From the IMG/VR virus record IMGVR_UViG_3300000968_000002, positions 5,344-69,343 of that record: 64,000 nt of DNA; one strand, 5' to 3'. The translations under genes were made by a program, and so were the position numbers. The stretch's first letter is position 1. Each line of letters begins with the position of its first letter. The notes under the pieces were generated by a model that saw only the letters and a program-made list of their open reading frames with translations, ran no database searches and was not told the origin of the DNA. Origin of the DNA: a virus (Duplodnaviria; Caudoviricetes). Below are positions 31,401-55,063 of this stretch, piece after piece.

Positions 31401-32248
31401 GGGCCTCCTCTATCTCCAAAAATCTCGAGAGCCTGTGAGGTTGTAAGGCCTCGCTCGCTCAATAGAGATAGGGCGCTAGAAAGCCCGACACTACTAACCT
31501 TCACGTCGTCCGTTGTAATTCCGAGGCTTCTTAAAATTCTAGCCGCCTCTTTGGATGGGTTCTCGAGGCCCGTCAGAACTCGTCTCAAGCCCGTGCCTGC
31601 GCTTGATCCCTGAATACCAGCGTCAGATAGAGCTCCGATTGCAGCCGTCGTCTCCTCCAGTCCAACACTTAGACCGCTAGCAATAGGCGCGACAAACGAC
31701 ATTGCATTACCAAGCTGTTGAACGTTTGTGTTGCTGGAGTTTGCTGCAAGAGCGAAAACGTCAACAACGCGCCCGGTCTGATCTACCTCAAGCCTCATGC
31801 CCTGCAATGCGTTTGATGCGATATCGGCCGCAGAGCCAAGCCCAAGCCCGCCAGCCTGAGCCAGGTTGAGCGTTCCTCCGATTGCTCCAAGTACCTGATC
31901 TGCATCAAAACCCGCGCGCGCGAGGAAAGCCATGCCCTCTGCTGCCTGTGAGGCGCTAAATCGTGTCGTCCGCCCTAACGTCTCGGCTGTTGCCTGTAAT
32001 GCTACAAATTGGGTTTCTGTGGCCTGCGTGATCGCTTTAACGGTAGACATTTGCTGAGAGAAATCAGCAAGAAGTGTTACCGATCGAGAAATCGCAACCG
32101 ATACACCTGCCCCCGCGAATAGTGCGAGCATTGTCTTTTGTAGAGCACTGGCCTCAGTTCTAACTCCACGAAGCTCTCGCCTGACCCGCTGCGAGCCTGC
32201 TGCTGCGTTTCTAGGATCGACCCGAACATCAATAGGATATGAAGGCAC
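28487..32248 (-). CDS. Tape measure protein (TP901 family)
   Basis: TTRFSASQAAEG..LARAGF, NTNVQQLGNAM..VAP, GIQGSSAGTGLR; long helical composition. Confidence 0.95.
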   Translation of the reverse strand: MPSYPIDVRVDPRNAAAGSQRVRRELRGVRTEASALQKTMLALFAGAGVSVAISRSVTLLADFSQQMSTVKAITQATETQFVALQATAETLGRTTRFSASQAAEGMAFLARAGFDADQVLGAIGGTLNLAQAGGLGLGSAADIASNALQGMRLEVDQTGRVVDVFALAANSSNTNVQQLGNAMSFVAPIASGLSVGLEETTAAIGALSDAGIQGSSAGTGLRRVLTGLENPSKEAARILRSLGITTDDVKVSSVGLSSALSLLSERGLTTSQALEIFGDRGGPAAEVLLQVAGRSDGARSALDEMTRSLENAGGTAERIAETMDDNLNGAILSARSALEGLILSIGNAGATDALTATFDGLATAFRFAADNADILLFALIALSAQATAPAFVPLITQAHASTTAFLAKTAALRGTTVAMIAAQTAARGLGASLLAFAAANPILLGIAAIAGAYVLLRDKTKDTGDEIQRTAGILADYRSNASAIQRDTELLASRNEDLSEAILETGSSAQEAARLEIDAISKRLARNKDLQRSYEASLRAQLAVAKATQSGNDQEELSRLTGVSRTTRREINRGNNTRIVRERRDEAEFLAEANSELENQIDLIIELQKEGETLTENQVKILEFNAQRKEDLNEILGLEDAINQLNKPTERDEGGGGGGGGDNDNGASSPDFEERLRALQKETEALGLNERAREARNKLLDFEKDLERDLKDGRERNLVVAEIARQQTLLDAQAIEDRVKSMTEENSLLSLNTREAEARSAVLELEREILRRLTPAEEDRVRSLVAENQALRDSSVINDRLDSLAQQAELYQQIGIEAEIATEILRLENQLQRELTDTEAQWIRSAIELNDELDRRRRILEDARSPAEEAIRTQNTLNDLYRDGALSLGEYNRALQENSLANQGREIDRFLNSNGGNLEPSAFEQNRIDIENQTRAQEGGGLGQNPNEFGGFSGESLGVQDELQQERDNAQERLNVLRELRDAEILQEEEFLLRKEELFKQSGERQEEILRKGAQVQLAAAESTFSSITDILASTVGEQSALYKASFAAQKAAAIAQSIVAIQTGLAQAAAIPFPANLPAIATVAAATASIVSNIQSVRLKLMDGGQVGERFDGVVRGAGSRKSDSIAAMLSRDEFVVQADNAQQSLRLLNAINDGQINDESFTRNKFMNGGRVGGPPSNAGGFAANDRSGGNRGGSTITVQQINVEVNGGGNNAEAQGREAGEAAGRAFIETVIREETNLPGGVIYERVANG

Positions 32249-32251
32249 AAC

Positions 32252-32608
32252 TTACTCCGTTTCAGGTTTCTTTTTACCTTTTCCACGGAATGTAGCACGC
32301 GATTGGTCTCTTTGGTAGCCCGCGTGCATGGCTTGAATACAATCCCAAAAAATAGGCCACATGCGCTTATGCCGGCCACTTGCTTTAAATCGCTTTCGCG
32401 CAATGCTCCACCGGATTTGACCGTCCGGGGATCTGTCTGTGAACAAGTCCCAATAGGCCCGAAAAAGCCAAAGTGTTCCACGTGGAACATCTGGCCTCTC
32501 AAGATACCAGTCAGGGAGGGGGCGTCCTTTAGTGATTGCGCCCTTTACTTGCCTTTTGTTTCGGCTGTAGCGCCCTTCCCATTCGATGACTCGCCCGAGA
32601 GCTTTCCC
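32252..32608 (-). CDS. Tail chaperone T segment, reached by -1 frameshift (G-T fusion)
   Basis: -1 frame open from slippery site to stop at 32252: GKALGRVIEWEGRY..PLPDWY..RAYWDLFTDR. Confidence 0.8.
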   Translation of the reverse strand, partial: GKALGRVIEWEGRYSRNKRQVKGAITKGRPLPDWYLERPDVPRGTLWLFRAYWDLFTDRSPDGQIRWSIARKRFKASGRHKRMWPIFWDCIQAMHAGYQRDQSRATFRGKGKKKPETE

Positions 32609-33144
32609 AGCGTCTCATCCTCCTCGTTCTTGCGCTCCTGCTCGATCGCCTCATCAAGACTATCGAGGTCAAACTCATCAAGATCATCGAGATCGGATAG
32701 ATCAAATTCATCTGCTTCGTCTTCGATTTTTGGGCGGTCCGGGAGGAAGTTAGCGCTACTGCGAATCCAGCCTCGAAGTGAGTCCTGATAACGAACAGGC
32801 ATTGCGACGAGAAAATCAAAGCAGTCTGACTTTGTGAATTTTACCGGATCGCCTTTAGTGTCAACGACGCCGGTCCAACCTGTAGCACAATATTTAGCAA
32901 ACATAGCCATATCTTCACGGCGCGCGCGCTTCATTTCTTTTTTGGGGTTAACCTTCCCCTTGCGGTTTGCGTCCTTACCTTTTTTTTGTGCAAATAAGAG
33001 TGAGGCGTCCGCATAGTCATCATTTCCCTCAAGTGCCGGGAGAAACATAATCTCGACCACGCCCGCGATAAGTTCAAACTTGAATGGCTTTGGTGTTTTG
33101 TTGTCGACCTCAAGGCCTTTAATAAGGTGGTCAAATTTAGACAT
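32545..33144 (-). CDS. Tail assembly chaperone G
   Basis: Between tail tube and tape measure; TGWTGV..G..VKFT motif. Confidence 0.8.
   Translation of the reverse strand: MSKFDHLIKGLEVDNKTPKPFKFELIAGVVEIMFLPALEGNDDYADASLLFAQKKGKDANRKGKVNPKKEMKRARREDMAMFAKYCATGWTGVVDTKGDPVKFTKSDCFDFLVAMPVRYQDSLRGWIRSSANFLPDRPKIEDEADEFDLSDLDDLDEFDLDSLDEAIEQERKNEEDETLGKLSGESSNGKGATAETKGK
32602..32608 (-). other. Programmed -1 frameshift site G GGA AAG
   Basis: Same heptamer as lambda G/T, in the X XXY YYZ register of the G frame. Confidence 0.85.
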
Positions 33145-33210
33145 GTGGAGCTCCGAGAGTTGCTTTTCGCCTCTCTGCCCCGAAATATGTGCCTTGTCTA
33201 GTCAGTCTCG

Positions 33211-33249
33211 AAAAATAGAAAACCCTCGCTTGGTGGGTTCAAGCGAGGG
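33211..33249 (-). terminator. Rho-independent terminator after tail tube gene
   Basis: CCCTCGCTTG/CAAGCGAGGG stem then T-rich run. Confidence 0.8.
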
Positions 33250-33294
33250 CGCGACGATAAATCTGCTAATGTGGGACTAGCTGATTTATATCAT

Positions 33295-34806
33295 CTAGGC
33301 AGCACAAGGCTTTTTCGGTAAGAGCGGAAAGACTGTAATCGCCAAACAAGCCCCGTCACGATCCTCATTGTAAGCGTAGCCAGTTGTTGAAATCGTAACA
33401 CTTTCATTTTCCGGGAAGCTCCGATCGCCGCCCTCGAGGCCAAGCCTCGGAATATGAAAATACATTCCGCCGTCATCATTCCAAATCGGGAACCGGAGCG
33501 AGAGCTCGCCATCACAAGCAATCGTTTCGATAATGTCCGAATTGCTAAAGATTGCAGTATATTCCGCCGAAACCTCGAGGTTCCCGATATTGATCTGGCT
33601 CGGGACAAGTGTTCCTCGAACCTTCCGGGCGGCTGCGCCATTGGCAATCGTTAAGGTGAAGTCATCGAAATCAGTCATCAGATTTGAGCCATCATCTTTT
33701 TTGATAGCAAACTGAACAAGGTCAACATTTGTTGCAAACTCGGCTGTTGAGTTTAGCGGGGCAGCATCAGTATGACCGTTTTGAGCGATTGTGCTGGGGC
33801 GAGTTGTCTCTGTGCCGACAAAGCCGAATGTAACACTGGCGAACTCATCCTCCAGCGCGATACTCATGGAGTCGCAGGCGTTGTCTTTTGCATATTCATA
33901 CTTCGTCACATCAGGGTCTGTGAACTCTGTTGATAAGCCAAAGGTGTAGAAAACGCGCTCAAAGTTCACATCTCCGATCGGATAGTTTCGGAGGTAAGGG
34001 CCAAACAGAATGTCGATTTGAGTGTCTGCTCCCGCATCCGCAGCATATGTCCGGTCACGATTGTAAAGCGTTATCTTGTTGGCAGCAATCTCTTGGACTT
34101 GCGCAAATCCGTGAGTGTCCTCCTCGGCAAACCCATTCACGTCGTCCGTTCCGCCGATGTAAATTGCCTGATCTACAACAAGGCCAAGAGTGGTGAGATC
34201 AAGCGTGGTTGATATCAGGTTTCCATCTGCGTCAATCGCAAGATCACCAGCCGCACCGCGCACACCAGCGATATATGCATCGACGCGACGATTTGCCGGG
34301 ATCGACTCTGCGGTAAGGCCTGTCAGAGTGATCGCTGTAGCCCCTGCTGCGACCGCCGCACCGAGAAGGAACTCGCCCCGGGTTGTCTGGTTCGCTACGG
34401 ACCGCAGACCTTTGAGGGCAAAGATAGTGGTGGCCCCTCCAGATTGGATTGTCGCGGCCACGGATGCACTAACAGGATCGACCGTAATGGTGTCTGCCGC
34501 AATACCAGTCACACGCATTGAAGCCGGGCCTGTGGCTTTTCCGTAAAGGAAGGCTCCACCAAACTCGAGCATTGAATCCACATCGAGATTTGCAGCAAAC
34601 TCAACACCACTGTCTTTAGCCGTGACACGTTTCTGACGAGGGTTTCGGTTTCGGCTAATCCGTGTGGGCTCTGACTTGGTGTAAGTCTCGCCAAATTGAG
34701 AGAGCTCTGATCGCTCCATCACTCGGAACTTTGCAGGGTCCGCGAGGGGCTGCTTAAATCCTGTTTGCCTCGTGTATACGAGTTCTGTGCTGTTTGTATC
34801 GGTCAT
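33295..34806 (-). CDS. Major tail tube protein
   Basis: Position; SEPTRISRNRN, FTLTIAN, SAEYTAIF tube-family motifs. Confidence 0.8.
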   Translation of the reverse strand: MTDTNSTELVYTRQTGFKQPLADPAKFRVMERSELSQFGETYTKSEPTRISRNRNPRQKRVTAKDSGVEFAANLDVDSMLEFGGAFLYGKATGPASMRVTGIAADTITVDPVSASVAATIQSGGATTIFALKGLRSVANQTTRGEFLLGAAVAAGATAITLTGLTAESIPANRRVDAYIAGVRGAAGDLAIDADGNLISTTLDLTTLGLVVDQAIYIGGTDDVNGFAEEDTHGFAQVQEIAANKITLYNRDRTYAADAGADTQIDILFGPYLRNYPIGDVNFERVFYTFGLSTEFTDPDVTKYEYAKDNACDSMSIALEDEFASVTFGFVGTETTRPSTIAQNGHTDAAPLNSTAEFATNVDLVQFAIKKDDGSNLMTDFDDFTLTIANGAAARKVRGTLVPSQINIGNLEVSAEYTAIFSNSDIIETIACDGELSLRFPIWNDDGGMYFHIPRLGLEGGDRSFPENESVTISTTGYAYNEDRDGACLAITVFPLLPKKPCAA

Positions 34807-34828
34807 GATCTAAGGTCTCCTGATCTCG

Positions 34829-35275
34829 CTATTTCTTTTGCCTGTAATGGAAAAACACTTCACATAAAAGCACATTATATCGACCCGTTTCATCAAGGCC
34901 CGCTTCACGGCAGCCAACCCGGGGGAAAGACGAGTCGATTCCGTCTATATTCCTACCCTCAAACATACGCTCGAGAGCCTCTGTCAATTCATCCATTCTA
35001 GCGCTTCCGATATCAATCGGGAGGGAAACTTTAATGGTTATCGTTCCTGTGCGGACATACCTACGGTGGTTTTTTCCGCCATGTGACCGTTGATAGCTTG
35101 GTGCGTGCTGTATTTCTACTTTCGCCCACTCCGGCAGACCGATGAACTTAGCCGTTGGCTTCATTGGGTACGCAACCGGAACCCGCATCGGCTTCTCAAA
35201 TTCATCCCGGATTCGGTTGAGGACCTTCTTTTTAAAGTCGTTCCTGACGCTTACCTGTGTGCCGCTAGTGCTCAT
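34829..35275 (-). CDS. Tail terminator-like protein
   Basis: Position upstream of tube; RTGTITIKVSLP.DIG pattern. Confidence 0.65.
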   Translation of the reverse strand: MSTSGTQVSVRNDFKKKVLNRIRDEFEKPMRVPVAYPMKPTAKFIGLPEWAKVEIQHAPSYQRSHGGKNHRRYVRTGTITIKVSLPIDIGSARMDELTEALERMFEGRNIDGIDSSFPRVGCREAGLDETGRYNVLLCEVFFHYRQKK

Positions 35276-35680
35276 TTACAGACCTGATCTCTTTGCTGCG
35301 ACCGCTTTCGCAATACTAAACTGAACAAATCCAGCAGGCGCCTGCTTGCTGTGACCGTCATTCAATCGACCTATATATGGCACATTATTGCTTACGAAAA
35401 TAGGTCCTTGATCTATCCGGTAAGATGCAGCGATCGAAAAAAGCTGACTTTCCGCAGACGAGGCCAATGAGGAGGCCAAACCGCTTGTGGTTTCTACGTC
35501 CTTAAGATTGGCGCGATATGGAGTTGTGACCTGCGGAATCCAGTTCGCTCGCGCCCAGCCGAGATCAAGAGGTGTTGCCTCTATCAACTCGGCAGAGACC
35601 TCGAAGACAAGCCCCGTGATCTCTCTGGCAATAAACCGATCCATACCATCAAGAACAACCTCGAGAGGATCGCGCGGCAT
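35276..35680 (-). CDS. Neck/tail completion protein (HK97 gp10-like)
   Basis: TPLDLGWARANW, SNNVPYIGRLNDGHSKQAPAGFV. Confidence 0.8.
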   Translation of the reverse strand: MPRDPLEVVLDGMDRFIAREITGLVFEVSAELIEATPLDLGWARANWIPQVTTPYRANLKDVETTSGLASSLASSAESQLFSIAASYRIDQGPIFVSNNVPYIGRLNDGHSKQAPAGFVQFSIAKAVAAKRSGL

Positions 35681-36280
35681 TTACTCTTCTTCTGACCCAC
35701 TTTTGCCAGTAAGAACAAGCTCTGCCAGAACGGCTGCGATCTTGTTTATACCTAGCCGGCCATTGACTGTGCCGCCACGAGACCTGATCTGCTCGATAAG
35801 GATCGCTTTTTCTGCATCTTGAGCAGCGGTAACGGAGCCATCTTCACCAACAACAAGCATCGCCTTAGCAGCTTCGTCGTCAATCAAGTTTTCATCCTGA
35901 ATATCGATATTGATAAACATAACCTTTTTTAGTCCTTCGCGTTGAGCAGCCTCATCAGCAAACTCAACCTCATCGAGACCGTGCATCTCAAGAAGCTCTG
36001 CGAGCTCCTCTGCGCTCAATGCGTCAACATCGACGGACAAGCCCTCTGTTTCGTCAGATTGCTTTGTCTGAATAGGGTTGAATTCATCGAGATAAACAAC
36101 TCTGCCAGTGCGATACCAAAGAGCGCGAGTTTGCAATGTTGTGCATTCCCGATCGATAGGCTCGCCCGGGTGAAAGGTCTTGCCTGCGGTGTTGATATTC
36201 CGACGGCGTGGTGTGAGATCGCGCTCGTCGTCAAACTGTCTGCGAGATGAATTTCCGATTTCTCTTTTGCGGCGTGTCAT
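35681..36280 (-). CDS. Hypothetical head-neck protein
   Basis: Co-oriented ORF after capsid gene. Confidence 0.55.
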   Translation of the reverse strand: MTRRKREIGNSSRRQFDDERDLTPRRRNINTAGKTFHPGEPIDRECTTLQTRALWYRTGRVVYLDEFNPIQTKQSDETEGLSVDVDALSAEELAELLEMHGLDEVEFADEAAQREGLKKVMFINIDIQDENLIDDEAAKAMLVVGEDGSVTAAQDAEKAILIEQIRSRGGTVNGRLGINKIAAVLAELVLTGKSGSEEE

Positions 36281-36302
36281 AAGTATTGTCCTTGTGGTTA
36301 CT

Positions 36303-36334
36303 AAAAAGCCCCGCGAGCATAACCCGCGAGGCTT
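36303..36334 (-). terminator. Rho-independent terminator after major capsid gene
   Basis: 12-bp stem with G-U pairs, TTATG loop, T-run. Confidence 0.75.
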
Positions 36335-36358
36335 GAATTGTCATCCCTGTTCCGAGTC

Positions 36359-37381
36359 TTACAGGGTGCCGGTATTTTCAAAGAAGACCCCGAGATCGGC
36401 ACTCACCTGATGATAGGCTTGCGCGTCATCGATGATATGGAAATCTGCAAGGCGCAGGCGATCGTCGTGGCGGCGCATACGCATTCCGATATCGGAATAA
36501 ATATCGACCACGAAGTTATAACCCGCAGCAGGGACACGCTTGCCGACACGAGGTGGTGTGTATGAGAATAGGCAGCCGTTAGCTGTGATAAACTCGTTTG
36601 CCACAGCATTCTCTTCATCCGTCGTGCGTGCCGCTGTATTTTGAACGGCATAGCTGACGTGAATGTATTCAACCTCAAACAAACGCTTAAGGTCTTCGAT
36701 GCTGGCCTTTGCTGGTCCGCCCGGAGTTTGTCCGCGATCGAGACGATCAAGGATGCCCGGATGCTCAAGCAGGACGTCTTTCGTGTATTCGTCCATCGTA
36801 AGTGTATTGAGCTTAACGCCTGTCAGCAAAATACAGCGAGTGCGTTCACGACGAATGTCCTTGATTGGATCGGAAGCGTCGTCTGACCATTGAGTGAACT
36901 GAACGTCTGACGGAGCAGTTCCTGCAGCGATACCGGTCAGATCCCGAGTCCAAACACCAGCTTTGAAATAGGTGGTGAAGAAATCGATCTCCCGGCGCAG
37001 CTTGCCTTGGAAATTCAAGAACATTACCGCGTCCGTGTCCCACTCAAGGATGTCGTCCATATCATACTCGTCCTCGTCGGTCTGCGCGACCATCAAGGCA
37101 AAGATTTTCGCCAAGAACGCTGTTTTCTCATAATCGAACTGACCGAGCGTTGGCGCAGCTCCGCGAGCGCGTTCTTGCATTTGCGAGCGGTTAAAATCGC
37201 TCGAAGGGATGCTGTAATAAAAGTCTGTGAAGTTTTTGACTTTTACCATTGGGAAAACCTTATCCGCAACGAAAGCATCGTCGTCTTGGAAATTGGAAAT
37301 CAAAATATTTGTCAAACCAGTGTCGGTATGTGTCCGAGAACGGACCCGAGATGGTGAGACTGCTTTTTTTACCTGAAACAT
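36359..37381 (-). CDS. Major capsid protein (lambda gpE-like HK97 fold)
   Basis: DTGLTNI..FVADKVFP.V.V, RARGA, SDPIKDI, PAAGYNF; position. Confidence 0.85.
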   Translation of the reverse strand: MFQVKKAVSPSRVRSRTHTDTGLTNILISNFQDDDAFVADKVFPMVKVKNFTDFYYSIPSSDFNRSQMQERARGAAPTLGQFDYEKTAFLAKIFALMVAQTDEDEYDMDDILEWDTDAVMFLNFQGKLRREIDFFTTYFKAGVWTRDLTGIAAGTAPSDVQFTQWSDDASDPIKDIRRERTRCILLTGVKLNTLTMDEYTKDVLLEHPGILDRLDRGQTPGGPAKASIEDLKRLFEVEYIHVSYAVQNTAARTTDEENAVANEFITANGCLFSYTPPRVGKRVPAAGYNFVVDIYSDIGMRMRRHDDRLRLADFHIIDDAQAYHQVSADLGVFFENTGTL

Positions 37382-37431
37382 GTTTTAGGGTCCTTCTGAG
37401 TTCAGCTTAGGATGAATGCCGTTTCCGACGA

Positions 37432-37827
37432 TTAAGCCGTGCCTTTGAATGCGAAGGTGATGCCAATGACCTCACCAACGGCACCCGCCGCCACAACTGC
37501 TTTGCCGAGAATGGCATTTCCGGCAGCCGCGACAACCGCGACACCATCTGCGCCGGAGGCGACAAGATCGCCCACGGCAATTACTCCACCAGCCTCGACC
37601 GGAATGATCGCGCCAGTGGGTTGAGCGCCTTGGATTGGAGCATTTTCGGACTCCGCTGTTCCAAGGCTTACAAAATCAGCAACCTCGCCTGCTGCCGTAT
37701 AGACAGACTGACCGCTCGAGTTAGTTGAGAGAAAGCGATTAGCTTTCTGTGGAGCCGCTGCTGTTGCTGGCCCCGAAAAGACAGTGACGCTTGTCGCGTT
37801 GTCTAAGTTTGACTTGTGCTGGGTCAT
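37432..37827 (-). CDS. Head decoration/cement protein (DUF2190-like)
   Basis: VEAGGVIAVGDLVASGADGVAV..ILGKAVVAAGAVGEVI. Confidence 0.75.
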   Translation of the reverse strand: MTQHKSNLDNATSVTVFSGPATAAAPQKANRFLSTNSSGQSVYTAAGEVADFVSLGTAESENAPIQGAQPTGAIIPVEAGGVIAVGDLVASGADGVAVVAAAGNAILGKAVVAAGAVGEVIGITFAFKGTA

Positions 37828-37889
37828 GATTTTCTCCGTCTATGCCCTAAATGAAATCCGCCGGGGCGGTGTGTAAGCTTTACGCTCGG

Positions 37890-39104
37890 CTATTCAGCCA
37901 TGCGTACTTTGTTGTATAGATCGCGACCTGGCCCACTCTGAGTTACCGCAACATAGGCTTTCTCGAATGAGACGCCTTCTGCTTTAGCGTGGTTTTTAGC
38001 CAGATCGTTGAGCTGATCCTCATAACCCTTTGCATCGGATTTTGAGATTGCGCCTGACGGAGCAAAGTCTCCACCGAGGGCGTCGTTACCAGCTTTCAGC
38101 GCTGCGTATGCGCCCTTGCGGATATCCTCGTCCTCGATTCCCTCGAAGGCGCGCATGATACCCTTGCGGACGTCTTCGCTACCCGGAAGCTTGTCAAACT
38201 CGGCTGACCGCTTCTCAATCCTAGCATCCAGCGCCGCGACCTTGGCTTTTGCGAGTTCTTCACGCTCATTATCGCGATCGCGAGCCATCTTGACCATCCG
38301 AGGGTCGTCTGACTTGCGGAACTCGTCGCCATTGATAGCCGTGTAAACAACCGGATCACCGTCTTTGGCTTTCGAGATAAGGCTCGCGCGCTTGTCTTCG
38401 TCCGCCTTCAAGAAAGCGGCTTTAGCATCATCATCCGGGAGACTGTCATAATGAGCCTTGTTAATCGCGTTCAAACTGTTGACGGCAGTCAATGTCGCAA
38501 CGCTCTTTTCGAGGTCCGCCATTTTCTTCTTGTTCTCGTCTTCCTCCTCCTCGTCATTCATTTTCTCGAGGGTTTTGGCTAGATCACCAGTGAGAGCGCC
38601 AACAACGTCATGAGTTTGAGCTGCCTTGACGATATCGATCGCCTCTGCATCTCCCCAGCTCGATTCTGTATCGAACTTCGTGATTGCCGCGAGCGTCAAA
38701 GCTGCGCTTGCTAGCAAGGATTTTTTAATTTTGGACGCCATTGCAGTTTCTCCGTTTGGTGTCTGTTGAGTGGATTTCGAAATTTCCTCTATATCGTGCA
38801 TGTGACCTAAAGATTCGCCAATGACAACCCTTCCATTTTCATCGCGTGTCCAAGGGTGCGAATGCTCCTCGCCCGGGGAACCGGAAACCCAGCTTGTCTG
38901 ACCGCCATCAAGATAGTTCCCTTCCCAATCATGCTGATCGACAATATGCTGATGCCCATCGACAGCAGTCGTCATTTTCACTGTCTTTACAATGACTTCA
39001 CCGCCTCGAGACTTGATAATGGCCTTCCTCGCTGGCTTTTGAGCGGGCTCATCGACGGCGCTGATTTCGTCCAGCGTCATGCTTCTAATGATTTGCTTTC
39101 CCAT
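37890..39104 (-). CDS. Scaffold protein with N-terminal protease-like strand and His-rich insert; probable internal start at 38741
   Basis: LDEISAVDEPA at N-terminus, GHQH/HSH/HMH, charged helical C-terminus; GGAG RBS before ATG 38741. Confidence 0.7.
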   Translation of the reverse strand: MGKQIIRSMTLDEISAVDEPAQKPARKAIIKSRGGEVIVKTVKMTTAVDGHQHIVDQHDWEGNYLDGGQTSWVSGSPGEEHSHPWTRDENGRVVIGESLGHMHDIEEISKSTQQTPNGETAMASKIKKSLLASAALTLAAITKFDTESSWGDAEAIDIVKAAQTHDVVGALTGDLAKTLEKMNDEEEEDENKKKMADLEKSVATLTAVNSLNAINKAHYDSLPDDDAKAAFLKADEDKRASLISKAKDGDPVVYTAINGDEFRKSDDPRMVKMARDRDNEREELAKAKVAALDARIEKRSAEFDKLPGSEDVRKGIMRAFEGIEDEDIRKGAYAALKAGNDALGGDFAPSGAISKSDAKGYEDQLNDLAKNHAKAEGVSFEKAYVAVTQSGPGRDLYNKVRMAE

Positions 39105-39961
39105 TATACGTCCTCAAGCTCGTGAGCCATGCCACCAATGGAAAAGCCCTTATATGTTCCATCCTCGAATTTTTCTAAAATTGAGGGCTCTGTCGGTTTT
39201 AACGCGACCAGAAGGCCGGATTTCTTGATTTTTATATCGAGGGACTTGGCGATCTCCGTCGTCATAGGGAACAAAAACGGATAGCCACCGATGCTCTCGT
39301 TTCCGAAATCTCCGTGGCCGTGCATGTCCTTGGCAAAGTTTACCTGTGCAAAATCAAGAGCTGCCTTGAGCATTACGTCCTCCGGGATATGCTGATCCTG
39401 TAGGTCGAAATAATCCTCGCCATCGACCTTGCAAACCATCCCATAACCGAAAACAAGGCCTAGCTTTTTGTCGACCTTGGCAATCGAGGAGGTCTTAAAT
39501 GCTTTGTTCAGTTTCTTTTCCGTCACGTTTTCTTTCCATTTTTCCTTGAGCGGCTCGAAGATTTCCGGGCCTAGCTCTATCTCACCCATGTATGCAGGGA
39601 TTTCGGAACCGTCAACAGCATCCATTTCGTAAGTTATCGTGACGTGAGATTGATAAGTCGGGTATGCCCAATGCGCTCCGAGCTCCTTGAGTTCTTGCCA
39701 GCGCGCGGAAAGATGCGCGTCTTTGAACGCAAGAACGAAAGCGCCCTCATCCCCGAGAGGCTTAAGTTCCCGAGTCTCGTCTGCCGGGACTGTATAGGGA
39801 ACCTTCATCGTGTCCGCATCCGTTACCTCGACCGGCTCCCGGGAAAAGGCGATCGTGACGTGCATGTCATCCCCGAGCGTGGTCTTAATCCCGTGCGACT
39901 TTGCCCACGAATCGATCTCCTGCCAGTTCAATACTTGACGGCGTGCATAGAGTGTTTTCAT
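39104..39961 (-). CDS. Acb1-like 2H phosphoesterase fused to XkdF-like prohead serine protease
   Basis: HVTIAFS (H34) and HVTITY (H106); C-terminal LGLVFG..DLQDQ..KDMH..GTYKGFSIGG. Confidence 0.8.
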   Translation of the reverse strand: MKTLYARRQVLNWQEIDSWAKSHGIKTTLGDDMHVTIAFSREPVEVTDADTMKVPYTVPADETRELKPLGDEGAFVLAFKDAHLSARWQELKELGAHWAYPTYQSHVTITYEMDAVDGSEIPAYMGEIELGPEIFEPLKEKWKENVTEKKLNKAFKTSSIAKVDKKLGLVFGYGMVCKVDGEDYFDLQDQHIPEDVMLKAALDFAQVNFAKDMHGHGDFGNESIGGYPFLFPMTTEIAKSLDIKIKKSGLLVALKPTEPSILEKFEDGTYKGFSIGGMAHELEDV

Positions 39962-39966
39962 TATTT

Positions 39967-40064
39967 TCTCGATTTTTTGAGATTTTGTGTTGCAATGCCA
40001 CTGTGCGCACCGTAGACCACAATTGTCAAAGGGCAATCGAGCCCACTTACGGAGACACAAAATG
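39967..40064 (+). promoter_or_regulatory. Early promoter/leader copy 2
   Basis: TCTCGATTTTTTGAGA-N7-TTGCAA-N12-CACCGTA...GGGCAATCGAGCCCACTTACGGAGACACAAAATG. Confidence 0.8.
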
Positions 40065-40253
40065 AGCAATTTCAAAGAAAATCCAGTTTATAAACAGGTC
40101 CTCAAGGACTCCCTTGGTGGGATCATGTACGACGTCTCGAACAGAGGCAAATACGACGCTGACGAGCTCCTTGCAGAGATGGAGGCTTTCGGGATCAACC
40201 GCCTCGACGGGATCGCTAAGGGCGCATACGACTTCCTCAAAGAGGAGGCGTAA
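40062..40253 (+). CDS. Hypothetical early protein
   Basis: ATG ends the conserved leader. Confidence 0.65.
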   Translation: MSNFKENPVYKQVLKDSLGGIMYDVSNRGKYDADELLAEMEAFGINRLDGIAKGAYDFLKEEA

Positions 40254-40254
40254 G

Positions 40255-40497
40255 GTGGAAGCCACTACAAAATTCAAGGTAGGTCAGACTTATTGGGGTC
40301 GATTTATCACGGACGCGGACAGCAGGGTCGAGGCTAAAATCGAGCGCCGGACAGCTAAATCCGTGTGGATTGCGGATATGTTTTCCGGCGATATCGAGCG
40401 CCGTAAAATCTACGTTTTAGATGGTGTTGAGCGTTTCGCCATGAACAGCAGCTTGCGGATATCCTCCGCTCGCATCTCACTTTTTGCGGGAGAGTAA
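40255..40497 (+). CDS. Hypothetical protein
   Basis: GTG after GGAGG; fills operon. Confidence 0.55.
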   Translation: MEATTKFKVGQTYWGRFITDADSRVEAKIERRTAKSVWIADMFSGDIERRKIYVLDGVERFAMNSSLRISSARISLFAGE

Positions 40498-40498
40498 A

Positions 40499-41011
40499 AT
40501 GAAACTTGAACTTAAAGCCATCGAATACTCGGAACGATTATCAGAGGAGACTTATTGCTTTTCGGCAAAGCTATATGTCGACGGAAAGCCTTTTGCGATC
40601 GTCAGCAATCGCGGTCACGGAGGTTGTACCGACGTCGATCCGATCAACTTTGAGATGGAGCATGTTGGCGCGTGGCGGACTCACCTCGAGGAGGTTGAGG
40701 CCTATATCAAGGCGAACTTTCCCGCGACGACATACGAAGACGTCGTGATCCATACGGACCTTGAGATTTGGGCAAGCGATCAAATTACGGAGCACCTCTA
40801 TCGCAAGGAAATGAAAACCGCGTTTCGCTCAAAGGTCCTGTTCTACGTCAAGGGAAGCGTGCGCTATTTCGCCAAAAAGCAAAAAGGGCGGACGTTCCCG
40901 CAAGAGCAGATTGTCGAGCACGTCCGTTCTCGCCACGGAGATGACGTCAAGATTTTGAACCTACTGCCCGAGGCGGAAGCTCTTGAGCTTTGGAAAGCTA
41001 ACGCGGCATGA
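40499..41011 (+). CDS. Hypothetical protein
   Basis: Coupled ORF with GGGAG RBS. Confidence 0.6.
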   Translation: MKLELKAIEYSERLSEETYCFSAKLYVDGKPFAIVSNRGHGGCTDVDPINFEMEHVGAWRTHLEEVEAYIKANFPATTYEDVVIHTDLEIWASDQITEHLYRKEMKTAFRSKVLFYVKGSVRYFAKKQKGRTFPQEQIVEHVRSRHGDDVKILNLLPEAEALELWKANAA

Positions 41012-41202
41012 GCCGCATCAAGATCATCTGCGGGACCTGTTCCTCCGAGAACGTGTCTCGAGACGGAGCCGCAAGATGGTGTGTCGATAGTCAGCAATGG
41101 GAGCTATCCACGGTTTACGATTCGGCAGACTGTCACGACTGCGGCACGGAGCGTCGTCTCGCAGAGCTACCTATCGACCCTCCAAAAGAGAAATCACTAT
41201 GA
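41008..41202 (+). CDS. Small zinc-ribbon protein
   Basis: CGTC and CHDC pairs; ATGA overlaps at both ends. Confidence 0.6.
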   Translation: MSRIKIICGTCSSENVSRDGAARWCVDSQQWELSTVYDSADCHDCGTERRLAELPIDPPKEKSL

Positions 41203-42536
41203 AACCTGCGAATACCACCCTCGGGGCAATCCGGGACCCGCGCGATCTTGTTGAGGAATACCTCGAGAAGCTCGCAAAAATACCAGATACGATAAAGGCC
41301 TATGAGGAGGCCGGAGAAAAGATCAATCAGGTCTGCACCGTCTCTGGCGCCTTTGGGAGACGCGATATCTTTGACCGGCAAGGGCGCGTGAGCAAAGAGA
41401 CGATGGAGAAAGCTCTCCTCGGGAGCGCTTGGTGGGCGGCATTTAAATGGTGCAATATGAACATTCTCGCGACCGCTGCGGATAAAAAGAAATTCGATCA
41501 AGATATGCAAAACCCGCCTCCGTTCACGGTTGAGAACCTCGTCGGGACGTTTGGACCATATCTTGCGGACCCGCGCGAGGCGATCCTTCGAGGGCTTGCT
41601 GAGGCATTTATCACTCTCGATCCGGCTTATAAGTCGCACAGCAAGGTCAAAGTCGGAGTGAAGGGCCTCCCCAAGCGGGTCATTATCAACAACGCTCGGA
41701 GCGAGTGGTCTCGCTTGGGAGGCTGGGGATGGCAGCGCGCAGAGGATATGCTCAACGCTCTCCAAGTTTTTGATGGTGACGGGCTTGTCGATCGGGATAT
41801 CCTGTATTCCATTCAAAGAGGCGATCGTGAGACCTATCGCGGCCTGACCTTTAAGTTTTTCAAGAACGGAAATCTTCACGTTCACTTTAGCGAGCACGCC
41901 TGCCTCCAAATCAATCGAGGGCTTGCGGAATACTATGGCGACGTTCTCCCGGACGTGGAGCCTGATAAGGACGACCTCAAGGCAGACCCTCGCGCGCGCG
42001 ATCTCGCCAAAGATTTGCAGTATTATCCGACGCCGGTGAAGGTCGCGCGAGAGGTCTTGACAGAAAGTCGTATCTACGGAGTGCAAAAGGTTCTCGATCC
42101 TCAATGTGGATGCGGCCGCTTGCTGGATGCTGTTGCTTATCGAGAAAAAGAACGTGCAAAAGGCTGGAGCCGCACGGAGCACAAAAAGATATCCCTTCAC
42201 GCGATCGAATATCACGCCGGGCGCGTCCGAGAGGCTCGAGCAAAAGGTTACACGGTCATGCAGGCGAACTTTCTCGAGGTCGAGCACAACCACCTCAAGC
42301 CTTACGATCTCGTGTTTATGAACCCGCCTTTCTACGGACGTCACTATCTCAAGCACGTCATACACGCCCTCAAGTTTGTGAAGCCCGGAGGAAAGTTGAT
42401 CTCTATCCTGCCCGCAACAGCGCATTACGATCACCAAGAGCTCCCGGGAGATTATAGCTGGCACGATCTACCCGTGGGCTCGTTCTCTGAATCCGGAACG
42501 CGAGTTCCCACTGGATATGCAATCTGGTTAGTTTGA
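41199..42536 (+). CDS. DUF4942-domain class I SAM-dependent (amino) DNA methyltransferase
   Basis: FFKNGNLH (DUF4942), QYYPTP, VLDPQCGCG, MNPPF. Confidence 0.85.
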   Translation: MKPANTTLGAIRDPRDLVEEYLEKLAKIPDTIKAYEEAGEKINQVCTVSGAFGRRDIFDRQGRVSKETMEKALLGSAWWAAFKWCNMNILATAADKKKFDQDMQNPPPFTVENLVGTFGPYLADPREAILRGLAEAFITLDPAYKSHSKVKVGVKGLPKRVIINNARSEWSRLGGWGWQRAEDMLNALQVFDGDGLVDRDILYSIQRGDRETYRGLTFKFFKNGNLHVHFSEHACLQINRGLAEYYGDVLPDVEPDKDDLKADPRARDLAKDLQYYPTPVKVAREVLTESRIYGVQKVLDPQCGCGRLLDAVAYREKERAKGWSRTEHKKISLHAIEYHAGRVREARAKGYTVMQANFLEVEHNHLKPYDLVFMNPPFYGRHYLKHVIHALKFVKPGGKLISILPATAHYDHQELPGDYSWHDLPVGSFSESGTRVPTGYAIWLV

Positions 42537-42554
42537 CTTGAAAAGACCCTCGTT

Positions 42555-42570
42555 TCTCGAATAATCGAGA
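42555..42570. promoter_or_regulatory. Dyad box TCTCGAATAATCGAGA overlapping a probable -10
   Basis: Most symmetric family member; TTGACT/TTGAAA lie upstream. Confidence 0.65.
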
Positions 42571-42620
42571 CATGTTAATTCACTTCAAAAGGCACTTCCG
42601 CCAAGATCAAGGAGATCAAT

Positions 42621-42878
42621 ATGAAGAAACCTAAGAAGGCAGCCCCTAAAAAAGCTGCTGCAAAAAAACCAAGGAAGCCTAAAAAGCCTTTCGCTCCGGG
42701 CGAGGGCGATCTCGTTATGCTTAAGTCAGGCGGCCCATCCATGACGGTTGCCATCCGTGTAGGTCCTGCCCCGCAAGGCATTAAAGAAACGGATGTTTTG
42801 TGCATGTACTTCGTAAGAGATGAGATGAAGAGTATGTACTTTTCGCCTAAATTATTAAGGCCAGCAGAAATCATTTAA
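42621..42878 (+). CDS. YodC/DUF2158-like protein with Lys/Ala/Pro-rich N-terminal tail
   Basis: GDLVMLKSGGPSMTV, CMYF, F...LL. Confidence 0.8.
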   Translation: MKKPKKAAPKKAAAKKPRKPKKPFAPGEGDLVMLKSGGPSMTVAIRVGPAPQGIKETDVLCMYFVRDEMKSMYFSPKLLRPAEII

Positions 42879-42887
42879 CAACCTCAA

Positions 42888-42918
42888 AGCTTCCGGCAAT
42901 CGGGCTGGAAGCTGTTTT
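42888..42918 (+). terminator. Probable terminator
   Basis: AGCTTCCGGC/GCTGGAAGCT stem then GTTTT. Confidence 0.55.
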
Positions 42919-42932
42919 ACAGAAAGACCGAA

Positions 42933-43427
42933 ATGTCCTCACTCAATAAGGTAATGCTGATTGGTAATCTTGGGAACGATCCCGAGGTCAGATCCTTTGG
43001 TAATGGCGGAAAGGTTGCGAACTTCTCTCTCGCGACGTCCGAAAAATGGAAAGACAAGAACACCGGAGACCGCAAGGAAAAGACCGAGTGGCACCGCGTT
43101 GCTGTCTTTGGAGAGGGGCTCGTCAATGTTGTCGAGCGCTACGTTAAGAAGGGCTCAAAGCTCTATATCGAAGGCAAGCTGCAAACCCGGAAGTGGCAAG
43201 ACCGCGACGGGAACGACAAATACACCACGGAGATCGTCTTGCAAGGGCCAGGCTGTAAACTCACGATGCTAGGCAGCAAAGATGACAACAACGGAGGTGG
43301 TGGCCGGGATTACGGTAGCGGTGGACGATCTGGTGGCGGTGGCTACGGAGGCGGAAGCTCCTCGGGCTCGTCTAACTCAAACGATCGAGGCAGAGACTTT
43401 GATCTCGATGACGAGATACCGTTTTAA
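42933..43427 (+). CDS. ssb: Single-stranded DNA-binding protein
   Basis: [38 protein letters not shown] tail. Confidence 0.97.
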
Positions 43428-43672
43428 TGGTCGACGTGACGTCCATCACGCTCCCGGGGCTTGGCTTGGCGCTCTGCTCCGGGATTTCTTTCGGGATTTC
43501 TCTCGTTGCAGGCGTCCGGTTTTATAGGCTTTATGGACACTTAGAGCCTGACGAGGTTGAGGACGAGTTTTTCGAGAATATACCCGTGAAAGACCTTCAT
43601 CTTTTTGAGATATCGATGGTAGCTCTCGCCTTTGGCATCATCTTTATTCTTCTCGCGATATTCACCCAATAA
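43427..43672 (+). CDS. Two-TM membrane protein
   Basis: Two hydrophobic segments around an acidic loop. Confidence 0.6.
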   Translation: MVDVTSITLPGLGLALCSGISFGISLVAGVRFYRLYGHLEPDEVEDEFFENIPVKDLHLFEISMVALAFGIIFILLAIFTQ

Positions 43673-43708
43673 AAAAGCCGCGTAAGGCCCCCACCCTACG
43701 CGGCTTTT
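43671..43708. terminator. Bidirectional rho-independent terminator
   Basis: AAAAGCCGCGTA...TACGCGGCTTTT between convergent genes. Confidence 0.85.
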
Positions 43709-43728
43709 CGTTTTCCTATGGCAAGGAA

Positions 43729-44427
43729 TTACATCTCTTTAAGCTGGTTATATCGACGCCGCAAGTCCTCTGGCTTTGCCTGACCGCCAAAAAACACCAC
43801 AATATCATCCATCGATTTGCCGCTCGTTATCATTCTTTCGAGGTGCTCGTCGGACTCGACTGTCGGCTTGTAGCGCCCGTTTCCATAATAATCGAAAACG
43901 ATCCCGCTCGGATTATTTGACGCGATCGCCTTCCGGGCCTTTGGCTGCCTTGGTTTTTTGGCAACGATCTCGTTCTCGCCCTTATCCAATATCAAGATGA
44001 GCGCGCCGTCGCGGACGGTCCGATCCTTAAGGTCCGGCGTTCCGCTATAGGCCCCAATTCCCATATCGGTCATCCGGGTAAAGTTTACGACCATTCCGAA
44101 ATCCTTGGGGTTTTCGTCATGCGCCCGAGCCCCGACGGTGTTCTTTTTCACAACCGTTTTTGTCGGTGTCCCGGATTTGCTAATCTTAAGAGCGATACTT
44201 TCATCGAGGTCAGCGCCTTGCAGCTTCATAAAGTCGCCCTCTTTGATATCCATTTCCTTGACCATCTCCGGGCGGATCAAGAGCTTAATCTGAACGCCGG
44301 TCGAGACCTTCTTGACCCCGACTTTAATCGGCTGATCTCTCTCGCCTGCTTCGATATCGTCAAACTCTAAGTCATCAAAGATCGCAAATGGATCTTCTGC
44401 TTGTGTCTCGTCGTGGTCTTCGTTCAT
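43729..44427 (-). CDS. Hypothetical protein, possible AbrB-like regulator
   Basis: QIKLLIRPEMVKEMDIKEGDFMKL resembles AbrB swapped hairpin; short helical C-terminal domain. Confidence 0.5.
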   Translation of the reverse strand: MNEDHDETQAEDPFAIFDDLEFDDIEAGERDQPIKVGVKKVSTGVQIKLLIRPEMVKEMDIKEGDFMKLQGADLDESIALKISKSGTPTKTVVKKNTVGARAHDENPKDFGMVVNFTRMTDMGIGAYSGTPDLKDRTVRDGALILILDKGENEIVAKKPRQPKARKAIASNNPSGIVFDYYGNGRYKPTVESDEHLERMITSGKSMDDIVVFFGGQAKPEDLRRRYNQLKEM

Positions 44428-44549
44428 GGGTTTTCTCCTCGGGGTTTCGGACTGTTTGCACCAAGACGATCGAGCGAGCAAGTCGAAATCATTATTTTTA
44501 GAGAATTAAGCTGCTTCCCTATTTTTGACTTTGCCACTATAGGGAGAAC

Positions 44550-44975
44550 ATGGGCAACGTTTTGAAATTCACATCTAAAATAAGCTTTCTAGCTTCACCT
44601 GATGGAGTTGAGGAGCCGTGGTTAACCGGCCAGTCTTTTCGATGGCTTCTTGATTATAACGATCAATCGAAAGGTGAGATCGTTGTCCCGGCAGAGTTTC
44701 CTTTCGATGGAGCGAGCGTTCCGCCCATCCCTTTCGTCCGTATTTTCTTTCCTCGGGTTCATCCTGCCTATATGCAATCGGCTGCTTTGCATGATTGGTG
44801 CCTCAAGCACGAGCGCAGCCGATTCTCGAGAGAGCAAATCGATAAGATATTCAGAGAGGCTCTTGAGGCTCAAAAAAACCCCGGATGGCGCATCCGAGGT
44901 ATGTATCTCGGGGTTTCCTTATTTGGAAAGCTGTCCGAGGGAGATGATTACTACAGTCTTTCTATAAAGAATTGA
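44550..44975 (+). CDS. DUF1353 family protein
   Basis: FPFDGASVP, AALHDWCL, DKIFREAL, MYLGVSLFG. Confidence 0.85.
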   Translation: MGNVLKFTSKISFLASPDGVEEPWLTGQSFRWLLDYNDQSKGEIVVPAEFPFDGASVPPIPFVRIFFPRVHPAYMQSAALHDWCLKHERSRFSREQIDKIFREALEAQKNPGWRIRGMYLGVSLFGKLSEGDDYYSLSIKN

Positions 44976-45390
44976 GGACCTCGAGCGGAATCCCAAGCTG
45001 AGAAAGCTCCCGAATAGCTAGGCTCCGTCCTCCTTTGAATGTTGCAATAGCAGACGCATCATCTTGAGCCATCGCAACTGCCGTTTTGAACCGGCTTTCA
45101 AGACCGTCCACTTTTGCTCTAATATCTCGAACTGCATTTGCTTTCGCTATAACTATCTCAGCGAGCTGTTGAGGAGTCTCACCGCGGAATCGTTCATTAG
45201 CCTCCCTTTCAAACGCCCGAAGGATAAACTCATCCGGGTCATCAGCTCTTTTATAGAGCAGGATTGCAGCGTCTTTTGCCTTATCCACCAATCCGGCTAT
45301 CTTAATTCCATCATCAGATTGCATGATAATTATGCGGACATCAGATGCAAATTTTGCAACGGCGGAAAGCGCTTCCTGCTTAGTCTTCAC
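44962..45390 (-). CDS. Fibre assembly chaperone-like protein
   Basis: EANERFRGETPQQLAEIVIAKA..VDGLE resembles tail fibre chaperones; GTG start with GGAG. Confidence 0.45.
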   Translation of the reverse strand: MKTKQEALSAVAKFASDVRIIIMQSDDGIKIAGLVDKAKDAAILLYKRADDPDEFILRAFEREANERFRGETPQQLAEIVIAKANAVRDIRAKVDGLESRFKTAVAMAQDDASAIATFKGGRSLAIRELSQLGIPLEVLNSL

Positions 45391-54668: not shown

Positions 54669-55028
54669 CTATCCTCTGTAGCCTCGTCCGAAATCTCTAT
54701 AAGTTTTTCTTCTGTGGCAATTCGCGCACCTAACTTCGCATTTTTCAATCTCTGACTTTACAGAATTTAAGGAGTAATTACCTGAAACGGAATCCCCTAT
54801 ATTAAAGCGCTTGTCAAAATGAGACATATGATCGAACTCTAAAACAATCGGATCAGGCTCACCGCAATCAATGCACGGATTGGACCTTAAATGTGAAAGA
54901 ATATAAGCTCTAACCTTAGATGCTGTAACTTTATTGTGCTCCTTAGCTCTAGCCTTGTAGGCAGGTTTGTTTTTTTGATAATGACGTCGAGAGGCCTCGC
55001 GGCGCTTTTCTATGTCCTTATACGGCAT
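54669..55028 (-). CDS. HNH endonuclease
   Basis: CIDCGE..LEFDH..KCEVRCANCHR. Confidence 0.9.
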   Translation of the reverse strand: MPYKDIEKRREASRRHYQKNKPAYKARAKEHNKVTASKVRAYILSHLRSNPCIDCGEPDPIVLEFDHMSHFDKRFNIGDSVSGNYSLNSVKSEIEKCEVRCANCHRRKTYRDFGRGYRG

Positions 55029-55032
55029 GAAA

Positions 55033-55063
55033 TCTCGATAAATAGAGATTAGGGTGTGGTCAA
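55033..55063 (-). promoter_or_regulatory. Promoter TTGACC-N17-TATCGA overlapped by dyad box; leaderless HNH transcript
   Basis: Box TCTCGATAAATAGAGA at 55033-55048; -10 ends 6 nt before ATG 55028. Confidence 0.6.

Follow-up and report, generated by a model that had tools for sequence, protein, structure and literature searches.

An Acb1-family phosphodiesterase domain joined to a predicted XkdF-type prohead protease in an uncultivated phage, a candidate capsid-loaded counter-defense protein

Introduction

Why would a phage encode an Acb1-family phosphodiesterase domain and what appears to be its prohead protease as a single polypeptide? The question is raised by a gene in a 64,000-nucleotide stretch of DNA (hereafter called the window), which corresponds to bases 5344-69343 of the 69,343-bp IMG/VR virus record IMGVR_UViG_3300000968_000002, a record of an uncultivated phage that was judged 97% complete. 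The gene (P0001; 39104..39961, minus strand; ATG at 39961, TAA at 39104-39106) encodes a protein of 285 amino acids, hereafter called the fusion protein. It is almost certainly a real fusion with an intact Acb1 fold. The explanation favored here, with moderate confidence, is that of a two-domain late protein in which an intact Acb1 domain is carried into the procapsid by an XkdF-type half protease that is completed by a scaffold-like protein.

Results

Domain structure of the fusion protein

The N-terminal domain (residues 1-149; 39515..39961, minus strand) was assigned to the Acb1 family of 2H phosphodiesterases using Pfam, Foldseek and VIA-align. The Pfam Acb1 profile PF23474 matched residues 2-144 over positions 1-143 of its 144 with 112.1 bits (E 2.4e-32; cut-off 27), and scored 113.9 bits in a genome-wide search. 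The structure of the fusion protein was predicted with AlphaFold2 on the basis of 44 full-length homologues. The model had a mean predicted local distance difference test score (pLDDT) of 86 and contained two well-defined domains connected by a disordered linker, with a pLDDT of about 90 for the Acb1 domain. The best match among solved structures was the Acb1 of phage FBB1 (7t27), which VIA-align superimposed with a Z-score of 17.1 and a root-mean-square deviation (rmsd) of 1.8 Å over 134 of 140 residues; Foldseek matched FBB1 Acb1 (7t26) with an E-value of 4.6e-8 and a template modeling (TM) score of 0.80. Other 2H enzymes were weaker, including the BCSR5 (Burkholderia phage) phosphodiesterase (Z 12.9) and LigT-like proteins (Z 10.1).

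Both catalytic motifs of the family are present. The first, H34-V-T36 (MHVTIAFSR; 39854..39862, minus strand), corresponds to H44/T46 of T4 Acb1 and is invariant in the 44 fusion homologues. The second, H106-V-T108 (SHVTITY; 39638..39646, minus strand), corresponds to H113/T115; H106 is likewise invariant, and position 108 is Thr in 42 of the 44 sequences and Ser in the other two. The residues of T4 Acb1 that matter for function were shown by Hobbs et al. 2022 (PMC9117128). Based upon an alignment with the product of T4 gene 57B, whose sequence was taken from the T4 record, eight of these nine functional residues are kept in the fusion protein: in addition to the two motifs, Y12, F107, E141 and W147 of T4 correspond to Y5, Y100, E136 and W142. 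The last of these, the Trp of the C-terminal lid, is kept in 38 of the 44 fusions. The fold and chemistry of the domain thus appear intact, the base pocket may differ somewhat, and the domain probably cleaves cyclic oligonucleotide signals.

W142 is also part of the motif with which the Acb1 domain of this clade ends, W-x3-[VI]-x-E-K. The [VI]-x-E that follows the lid Trp was considered as a cleavage site of the gp21 type (I/L-x-E) and rejected. It is kept equally well in proteins that end with Acb1 (14 of 16, eight of which stop one residue later), and is therefore taken as the domain's own terminus and not as evidence of cleavage.

A flexible linker (residues 150-157; 39491..39514, minus strand), with a pLDDT below 50 at residues 150-155, connects the Acb1 domain to a domain of the XkdF type (Peptidase_S78_2; residues 158-285; 39107..39490, minus strand), which was assigned as a putative prohead protease by its profile match and by an assemblin-like fold. 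Pfam PF14550 (Peptidase_S78_2/XkdF) matched residues 158-282 with 24.4 bits (E 3.2e-5), and PHROG 1530 matched the C-terminal half with an E-value of 7e-18; XkdF relatives reach 31-39 bits with PF14550. The best solved match to residues 156-285 was T4 gp21 (5jbl, chain residues 10-150; Z 8.0, rmsd 3.4 Å, 111 residues aligned), followed by the herpesvirus proteases of varicella-zoster virus (Z 4.9) and human cytomegalovirus (Z 3.8). A candidate catalytic triad is formed by D186 (39404-39406), H214 (39320-39322) and S274 (39140-39142; all minus strand), the last within the motif GFSIGG, and all three residues are invariant in the 44 homologues, down to 33% identity. The spacing between H214 and S274 is 60 residues, compared with 55 for the H85/S140 pair named for gp21 (10.64898/2026.03.04.709575), the equivalence of the two pairs being drawn from spacing and alignment ends rather than from residue-level superposition. 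Taken together, the conserved residues and the predicted fold make it quite likely that the C-terminal domain is a working head protease.

The initial annotation of this locus, made from the DNA letters, had proposed an Acb1-like N-terminal half and an XkdF-like protease in the C-terminal half. The profile matches, the folds, the conservation of catalytic residues and the position of the gene all back this division. The two HxT motifs that it placed 72 amino acids apart are those described above, the segment IELGPEIFEPL that it pointed out is present at residues 127-137, and the Foldseek comparison to Acb1 that it suggested gave the 7t26 match.

Position in the head module and completion of the protease fold

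The fusion gene occupies the protease slot of the head module. It lies directly before genes for a scaffold-like protein (37890..39104; 404 amino acids; PHROG 24785), a cement/decoration-like protein (37432..37827; 131 amino acids) and the major capsid protein (36359..37381; PHROG 1005), and is the first gene of a compact minus-strand block in which these genes follow in that order, with the neck and tail genes behind them. The order of the fusion, scaffold-like, cement-like and capsid genes is kept on an independent contig of 64.5 kb from a relative that is 56% identical. The same gene order, with an XkdF-only protein or a protein with another N-terminal domain in the slot, was observed in the Roseobacter RDJL and Rhizobium RHph_TM3_3_9 phages. 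No second head-protease candidate was found among the window open reading frames (ORFs) scanned.

The start codon at 39961 is backed by homologues with the N-terminus M-E/K-T-L-Y. A longer ORF initiated at a TTG was disfavored, as it would enter the divergent gene that has its start near 40062. The linker region contains no internal start codon, and the protease is therefore made only as the fusion.

The chain of the fusion protein ends eight amino acids after GFSIGG, 11 residues after S274, and in nearly all relatives it ends 6-15 residues past GFSIGG. The TAA of the fusion gene overlaps the ATG of the scaffold-like gene (TAATG), and the two genes are translationally coupled. In unsplit proteases GFSIGG is followed by a further strand, which was located here in residues L11-Q22 (LDEISAVDEPAQ; 39039..39074, minus strand) of the scaffold-like protein, where E13, I14, S15, V17, P20, A21 and Q22 are invariant in four phages. 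Two natural proteins (P0220 and P0233) are unsplit, with an N-terminal Acb1 domain, the protease and the tail in a single chain, and in these GFSIGG is followed by 19-20 residues and then by (A)EVS(L/I)VDxP. The spacing across the junction between the fusion and scaffold-like proteins (8 + 12 residues) is that of P0220 and P0233. When P0233 is compared with the scaffold-like protein, LDEISAVDEPAQ is also the stretch that matches best locally, with an E-value of 0.29 that is not significant alone. Judging from this conservation, the start of the scaffold-like protein probably supplies the missing part of the protease fold or serves as a tether for the protease. A programmed -1 frameshift joining the two genes was considered and rejected, as the TAATG junction has no slippery heptamer and varies among relatives (overlap, 1-nt gap or 4-nt gap). 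Two polypeptides are therefore likelier than a frameshift product. The scaffold-like protein additionally contains the His-rich motifs DGHQHI, EEHSHPW and GHMHDI, which are conserved in three of the four phages.

Distribution and fusion partners

A search of 1.84 billion representatives (50% identity), exhaustive and run without profiles, returned 2,513 matches with E <= 0.001, 104 of them with E <= 1e-30, and many among the listed matches span both domains. The best 120 clusters at 90% identity comprised 64 with both motif sets, 37 with XkdF only and 19 with Acb1 only. The Acb1-XkdF fusion is widespread, occurring in many metagenomic protein clusters, but unstudied; a literature search found no description of an Acb1-protease or Acb1-portal fusion. 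Deposited phage genomes gave a sparser picture. When 50,697 phage records were searched with the fusion by tblastn, 151 matches were obtained, none covering both halves in one place, a result that excludes close relatives only, and a megablast search of window positions 30000-45000 against deposited phages gave no match. A BFVD fold search of UniProt viral proteins returned unconfirmed two-domain look-alikes with high-rmsd alignments, namely a 283-amino-acid protein of an uncultured Caudovirales phage and possibly proteins of Caulobacter phage Sansa and of actinophages.

Among 258 proteins that were collected, 127 of the 182 bearing an XkdF module carry Acb1, and 21 of these also carry ChaB. 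With 10 exceptions, the XkdF-bearing proteins have the XkdF module at the C-terminus, and besides Acb1 it is found with N-terminal ChaB, ParB-like nuclease or unnamed domains. A tree was built for this module with FastTree from a short alignment; parsimony on this tree requires 31 changes in the presence of Acb1, with at least seven gains or losses forced by well supported branches. From this pattern XkdF behaves as a carrier that stays at the C-terminus while the enzymes at the N-terminus are exchangeable. Individual metagenomic proteins (P0088, P0094, P0102, P0016, P0129 and P0155) combine XkdF with a ParB-like nuclease, with ChaB alone, or with ChaB and Acb1 with long inserts. Metagenomic Acb1 relatives also occur with a DUF7689 or a HiPIP-like domain.

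Some XkdF-type proteins are named 'DNA methyltransferase', both in PHROG 1530 and in RefSeq (Roseobacter phage RDJL Phi 2 gp60, L002:3971-4369; Rhizobium phage RHph_TM3_3_9, L001:4629-5366). This name was rejected for PHROG 1530 and for the RDJL proteins, which are XkdF-only proteins of 132 amino acids, and the label looks carried over from methyltransferase-XkdF fusions. The Rhizobium RHph_TM3_3_9 protein has a 120-amino-acid N-terminal domain with a weak ParB-like match.

The closest Acb1 domains among solved structures and deposited phage records are found at the C-terminus of portal proteins. The portal of cyanophage Pam3 (8hds; E 1.4e-12) is closer to the fusion domain than is FBB1 Acb1 (E 1.3e-5), and portal-Acb1 proteins of 38-46% identity are also present in Pseudomonas phage phiPSA1 and in Synechococcus and Rhizobium phages. 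Further relatives occur in portal-Acb1-MuF, portal-Acb1-PBECR3 and portal-Acb1-NUDIX-ADP-ribosyltransferase (ART) proteins. A recent fission or fusion at the fusion locus was not indicated, and the standalone Acb1 relatives examined are not beside protease genes.

Discussion

Proposed function

It is proposed that the Acb1 domain would cut the 3'-5'-linked cyclic di- and trinucleotide immune signals of antiphage systems that signal with cyclic oligonucleotides (CBASS), and possibly the cyclic triadenylate cA3, by a metal-independent HxT/HxT mechanism. The fusion protein would be made with the head proteins and would already be active in the late cytoplasm. Contact between protease and scaffold would then bring it into the procapsid, where maturation would free the folded 17-kDa Acb1 domain at the linker. 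The freed domain would stay trapped in the head and enter the next cell with the DNA. As the protease is made only as the fusion, each protease molecule entering the procapsid brings an Acb1 domain with it.

By the analogies below, encapsidation of the Acb1 domain is judged slightly the more probable outcome. Unlike the fragments of the HK97 protease, a folded domain cannot exit a closed procapsid, and internal proteins of T4 are ejected with the DNA. Encapsidation is favored because the protease exists only in fused form, would enter with the scaffold, and carries a 17-kDa domain that could not escape the closed shell. It is also favored because all fusion partners of this Acb1 clade are capsid-interior proteins, in an arrangement that follows the syntax described by Iyer and colleagues (PMC5512222). 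Since Acb1 is also found on head proteins other than proteases (portal and MuF), and XkdF is also found with ChaB and ParB-like domains, the capsid interior, and not the trigger of the immune response, is the common denominator. The suggestion of the initial annotation that the Acb1 domain may be released by autoproteolysis or packaged is accordingly plausible on these analogies and now favored. A further advantage of this particular partner is possible, though of second rank: protease activity itself may trip CBASS, as that of T4 gp21 does.

Several observations weigh against this explanation. Some Acb1 relatives (44-46% identical) are standalone proteins whose genes sit among nucleotide-metabolism genes and not among head genes, and the Acb1 domain therefore clearly works unpackaged too. 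CBASS signals arise late in infection, so the need for an enzyme that arrives at injection is not obvious. Within the Acb1 domain, the stacking residue W74 of T4 is replaced by K67 in the fusion protein, with E or K across the clade, and the adenine-contacting E136 is kept in only 22 of the 44 fusions; because of these differences the substrate range may differ from that of T4 Acb1. Within the protease domain, the PF14550 score of 24.4 bits is marginal against a cut-off of 24, the Z-score of 8 is moderate and in a range where unrelated folds can appear, and the end of the domain is modeled at low confidence (pLDDT 56-69 after residue 270). To our knowledge, no XkdF-family protein has been experimentally proven to be a protease. 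The paper on the RDJL phages lists no such virion protein, and no virion proteome of a carrier phage or of an XkdF-type relative was found in the literature.

A broader version of the capsid-loading explanation was also considered. The XkdF half protease might be a general capsid-loading adaptor, in which the first ~22 residues of the scaffold complete the fold in trans, switch the protease on only inside assembling heads and load the N-terminal cargo. The cargo would be cut after [VI]-x-E and injected, and Acb1 would be the commonest cargo because protease activity trips CBASS. In this extended form the proposal is speculative and is thought unlikely to hold as a whole.

Alternative explanations

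The best surviving alternative is that the fusion protein is not cargo but only an antidote in cis, each protease molecule in the late cytoplasm, as a potential CBASS trigger, being paired one-for-one with an enzyme that destroys the signal. The initial annotation had noted that capsid or prohead-protease proteins are implicated as CBASS triggers, and for prohead proteases the literature agrees in two cases. The protease activity of T4 gp21 activates a type II CD-NTase (a nucleotidyltransferase related to cGAS and DncV; 10.64898/2026.03.04.709575, a 2026 preprint), and mutations in the prohead protease-scaffold of Drexlerviridae escape type I CBASS (10.1101/2023.05.21.541620). The lack of an internal start, by which the protease cannot be made without Acb1, fits the same idea. 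However, these trigger data cover T4 gp21 and T1-like proteases only, not those of the XkdF type. The same Acb1 clade is present on portal and MuF proteins, which are non-proteases, and the XkdF module also bears ChaB and ParB-like domains that are unrelated to CBASS. Moreover, a diffusible signal needs no tethered enzyme, as co-transcription would suffice. Because the portal and MuF fusions and the other cargos are left unexplained, the tie between antidote and trigger, which the initial annotation had put forward as the meaning of the fusion, is ranked as a possible added benefit. That prohead proteases act as triggers is supported by the literature, and the purpose of the fusion is a matter of interpretation; as a complete explanation the cis-antidote appears unlikely.

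Rather less likely is that RNA or other phosphoesters, and not CBASS signals, are the substrates of the 2H domain, with Acb1 as a family label only. Healing of 2',3'-cyclic phosphate ends, an RNase activity like that of Usb1 and a phosphodiesterase of the 2'-5' oligoadenylate type would be examples of such a function. The N-terminal half has weak LigT_PEase and 2H-SAK matches, the matching PHROG 755 (5e-19) and the RefSeq family carry the name 'RNA ligase', the T4 W74 is not conserved, and an RNase role for head-fused 2H domains was considered by Iyer et al. 2017 (PMC5512222). Against this, the Acb1 profile scores 112 bits and the LigT_PEase profile 17, and the fold is far nearer to FBB1 Acb1 than to LigT or CPDase, which align with a Z-score of about 10 and an rmsd of 3.6-3.9 Å. 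The fusion protein retains the Trp of the lid, the Glu that contacts adenine and all but one of the four stacking aromatics, and no RNA ligase or kinase partner gene was found near the fusion gene.

It was also asked whether the XkdF half could be something other than a working protease, that is, a capsid-targeting or scaffold-binding handle, so that the protein would amount to a cargo with an address tag. Such a reading would fit the chain's lack of the strand(s) that follow the Ser in gp21, HK97-type proteases and the unsplit relatives, the Pfam score at threshold and the low C-terminal pLDDT. It is doubtful, and less probable than an RNA-directed activity: D186, H214 and S274 are invariant in 44 sequences down to 33% identity, the lacking strand is found, conserved and at the expected spacing, near the N-terminus of the next gene product, and the window ORFs scanned offer no other head protease. 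An artefact of assembly or gene calling, in which a sequencing error joined two adjacent genes, has virtually no probability, being refuted by recurrence across independent assemblies. Both motif sets are joined in a single chain in 64 of the 120 homologues listed and in many more of the 50%-identity representatives, and the syntenic relative on the independent 64.5-kb contig has the same single gene. The GC content of the gene (50.5%) also matches that of the window (49.9%), and nothing was found in favor of an artefact.

Upstream region and neighboring genes

The divergent intergenic region upstream of the fusion gene is 100 bp long. The initial annotation had reported no clear ribosome-binding site, which is fair, as only a weak GAGA is present, 5 nt before the ATG. 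It had also reported a dyad box 5 bp from the ATG; this box (TCTCGATTTTTTGAGA; 39967..39982, plus-strand letters) is present as described. Its motif, TCTCGA-N4-TCGAGA, is over-represented in the window, with 17 matches (<=2 mismatches) compared with 4.9 +/- 2.2 in shuffled sequences. Seven copies with an A/T spacer (16-bp sites at 1563, 11466, 16225, 33206, 39967, 42555 and 55033) all lie between ORFs, and by this distribution the TCTCGA-(A/T)4-TCGAGA-like dyad is a candidate phage regulatory site. The copy at 55033 is located 4 bp from the ATG of the gene 54669..55028 (minus strand), which mirrors the 5-bp spacing at the fusion gene.

The palindromic TTGCAA (39990..39995, both strands) also lies in the divergent region, and its proposed use as a -35 element in either direction was not borne out, as a consensus scan found no -10 partner on either strand. 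The only sigma-70-like site in the region is TTGACG-18-CATTAT (39935-39964, plus strand), which is directed into the plus-strand cassette. Its -10 element overlaps the start codon of the fusion gene, and the dyad box lies at its predicted transcript start. A terminator-like hairpin within the fusion gene (39744-39759) was at chance level only and was discarded.

The plus-strand cassette (39987-43427) contains small ORFs, a 479-amino-acid protein with DUF4942 and methyltransferase, and a single-stranded DNA-binding protein (SSB). A similar plus-strand cassette is found in the same place in the 56%-identical relative (L004). The terminase, portal and MuF-like genes are on the same strand as the fusion block and further upstream of it; between the portal/MuF-like genes and the block lie minus-strand genes (43.7-46.7 kb) and then this cassette.

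Significance and comparison with known systems

Acb1 has so far been studied only as a free cytoplasmic enzyme, and here one clade is built into head-interior proteins, namely protease, portal and MuF proteins. If read as proposed, this clade would imply that phages carry ready-made enzymes against nucleotide signaling in the virion. The activation of a CD-NTase by a prohead protease makes the fusion a natural experiment. As a compact test case the fusion protein bears on three questions, namely the ability of an XkdF-type protease to trip CBASS, the cancelling of the signal in cis by a tethered Acb1 domain, and the encapsidation of protease-fused cargo. The split protease fold suggests a simple way to restrict protease activity to assembling heads.

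With the Acb1 proteins of T4 (57B) and FBB1, the N-terminal domain shares a compact 2H fold, the HxT/HxT tetrad, the Trp of the lid, the Glu in contact with adenine and three of its four stacking aromatics (W74 of T4 being K67 here), at about 23-25% identity. Unlike the fusion protein, T4 and FBB1 Acb1 are free-standing proteins of 152 amino acids encoded outside the head module. In T4 (L008:3592-4411) the acb1 gene (57B), which RefSeq labels 'RNA ligase', directly adjoins ipI. The ipI product belongs to the internal proteins of the head and is injected with the T4 DNA.

With T4 gp21 and the XkdF family, the C-terminal domain shares the order and spacing of His and Ser and a gene position just before the scaffold and capsid genes. 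In contrast to gp21, the fusion chain stops 11 residues past the Ser and has an enzyme domain at its N-terminus, and the strand that would come next (EISAVDEPAQ) belongs to the product of the following gene.

The portals of Pam3 (gp3, 8hds), phiPSA1, Synechococcus phages and Rhizobium RHEph phages resemble the fusion protein in placing Acb1 on a protein that faces the capsid interior. In the portals the domain is C-terminal and is fixed in 12 copies at one vertex, whereas here it is N-terminal on a protease. The passages of the Pam3 paper retrieved by a term search make no mention of the C-terminal domain of the portal.

It was previously described by Iyer, Burroughs, Anand, de Souza and Aravind (2017, J Bacteriol; PMC5512222) that 2H domains are fused to portal or MuF domains and that assemblin-like peptidases are always C-terminal in packaged polyvalent proteins, and packaging, injection and degradation of defense nucleotides were predicted for such 2H domains. 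The pairing of Acb1 with XkdF was not found named in that paper or in the other literature searched. Like these polyvalent proteins, the fusion protein joins an effector domain to a head-assembly domain with the peptidase at the C-terminus; unlike the giant multi-effector proteins among them, it has two domains only. By this comparison, the fusion protein appears to be a minimal form of the kind of packaged counter-defense protein that was predicted.

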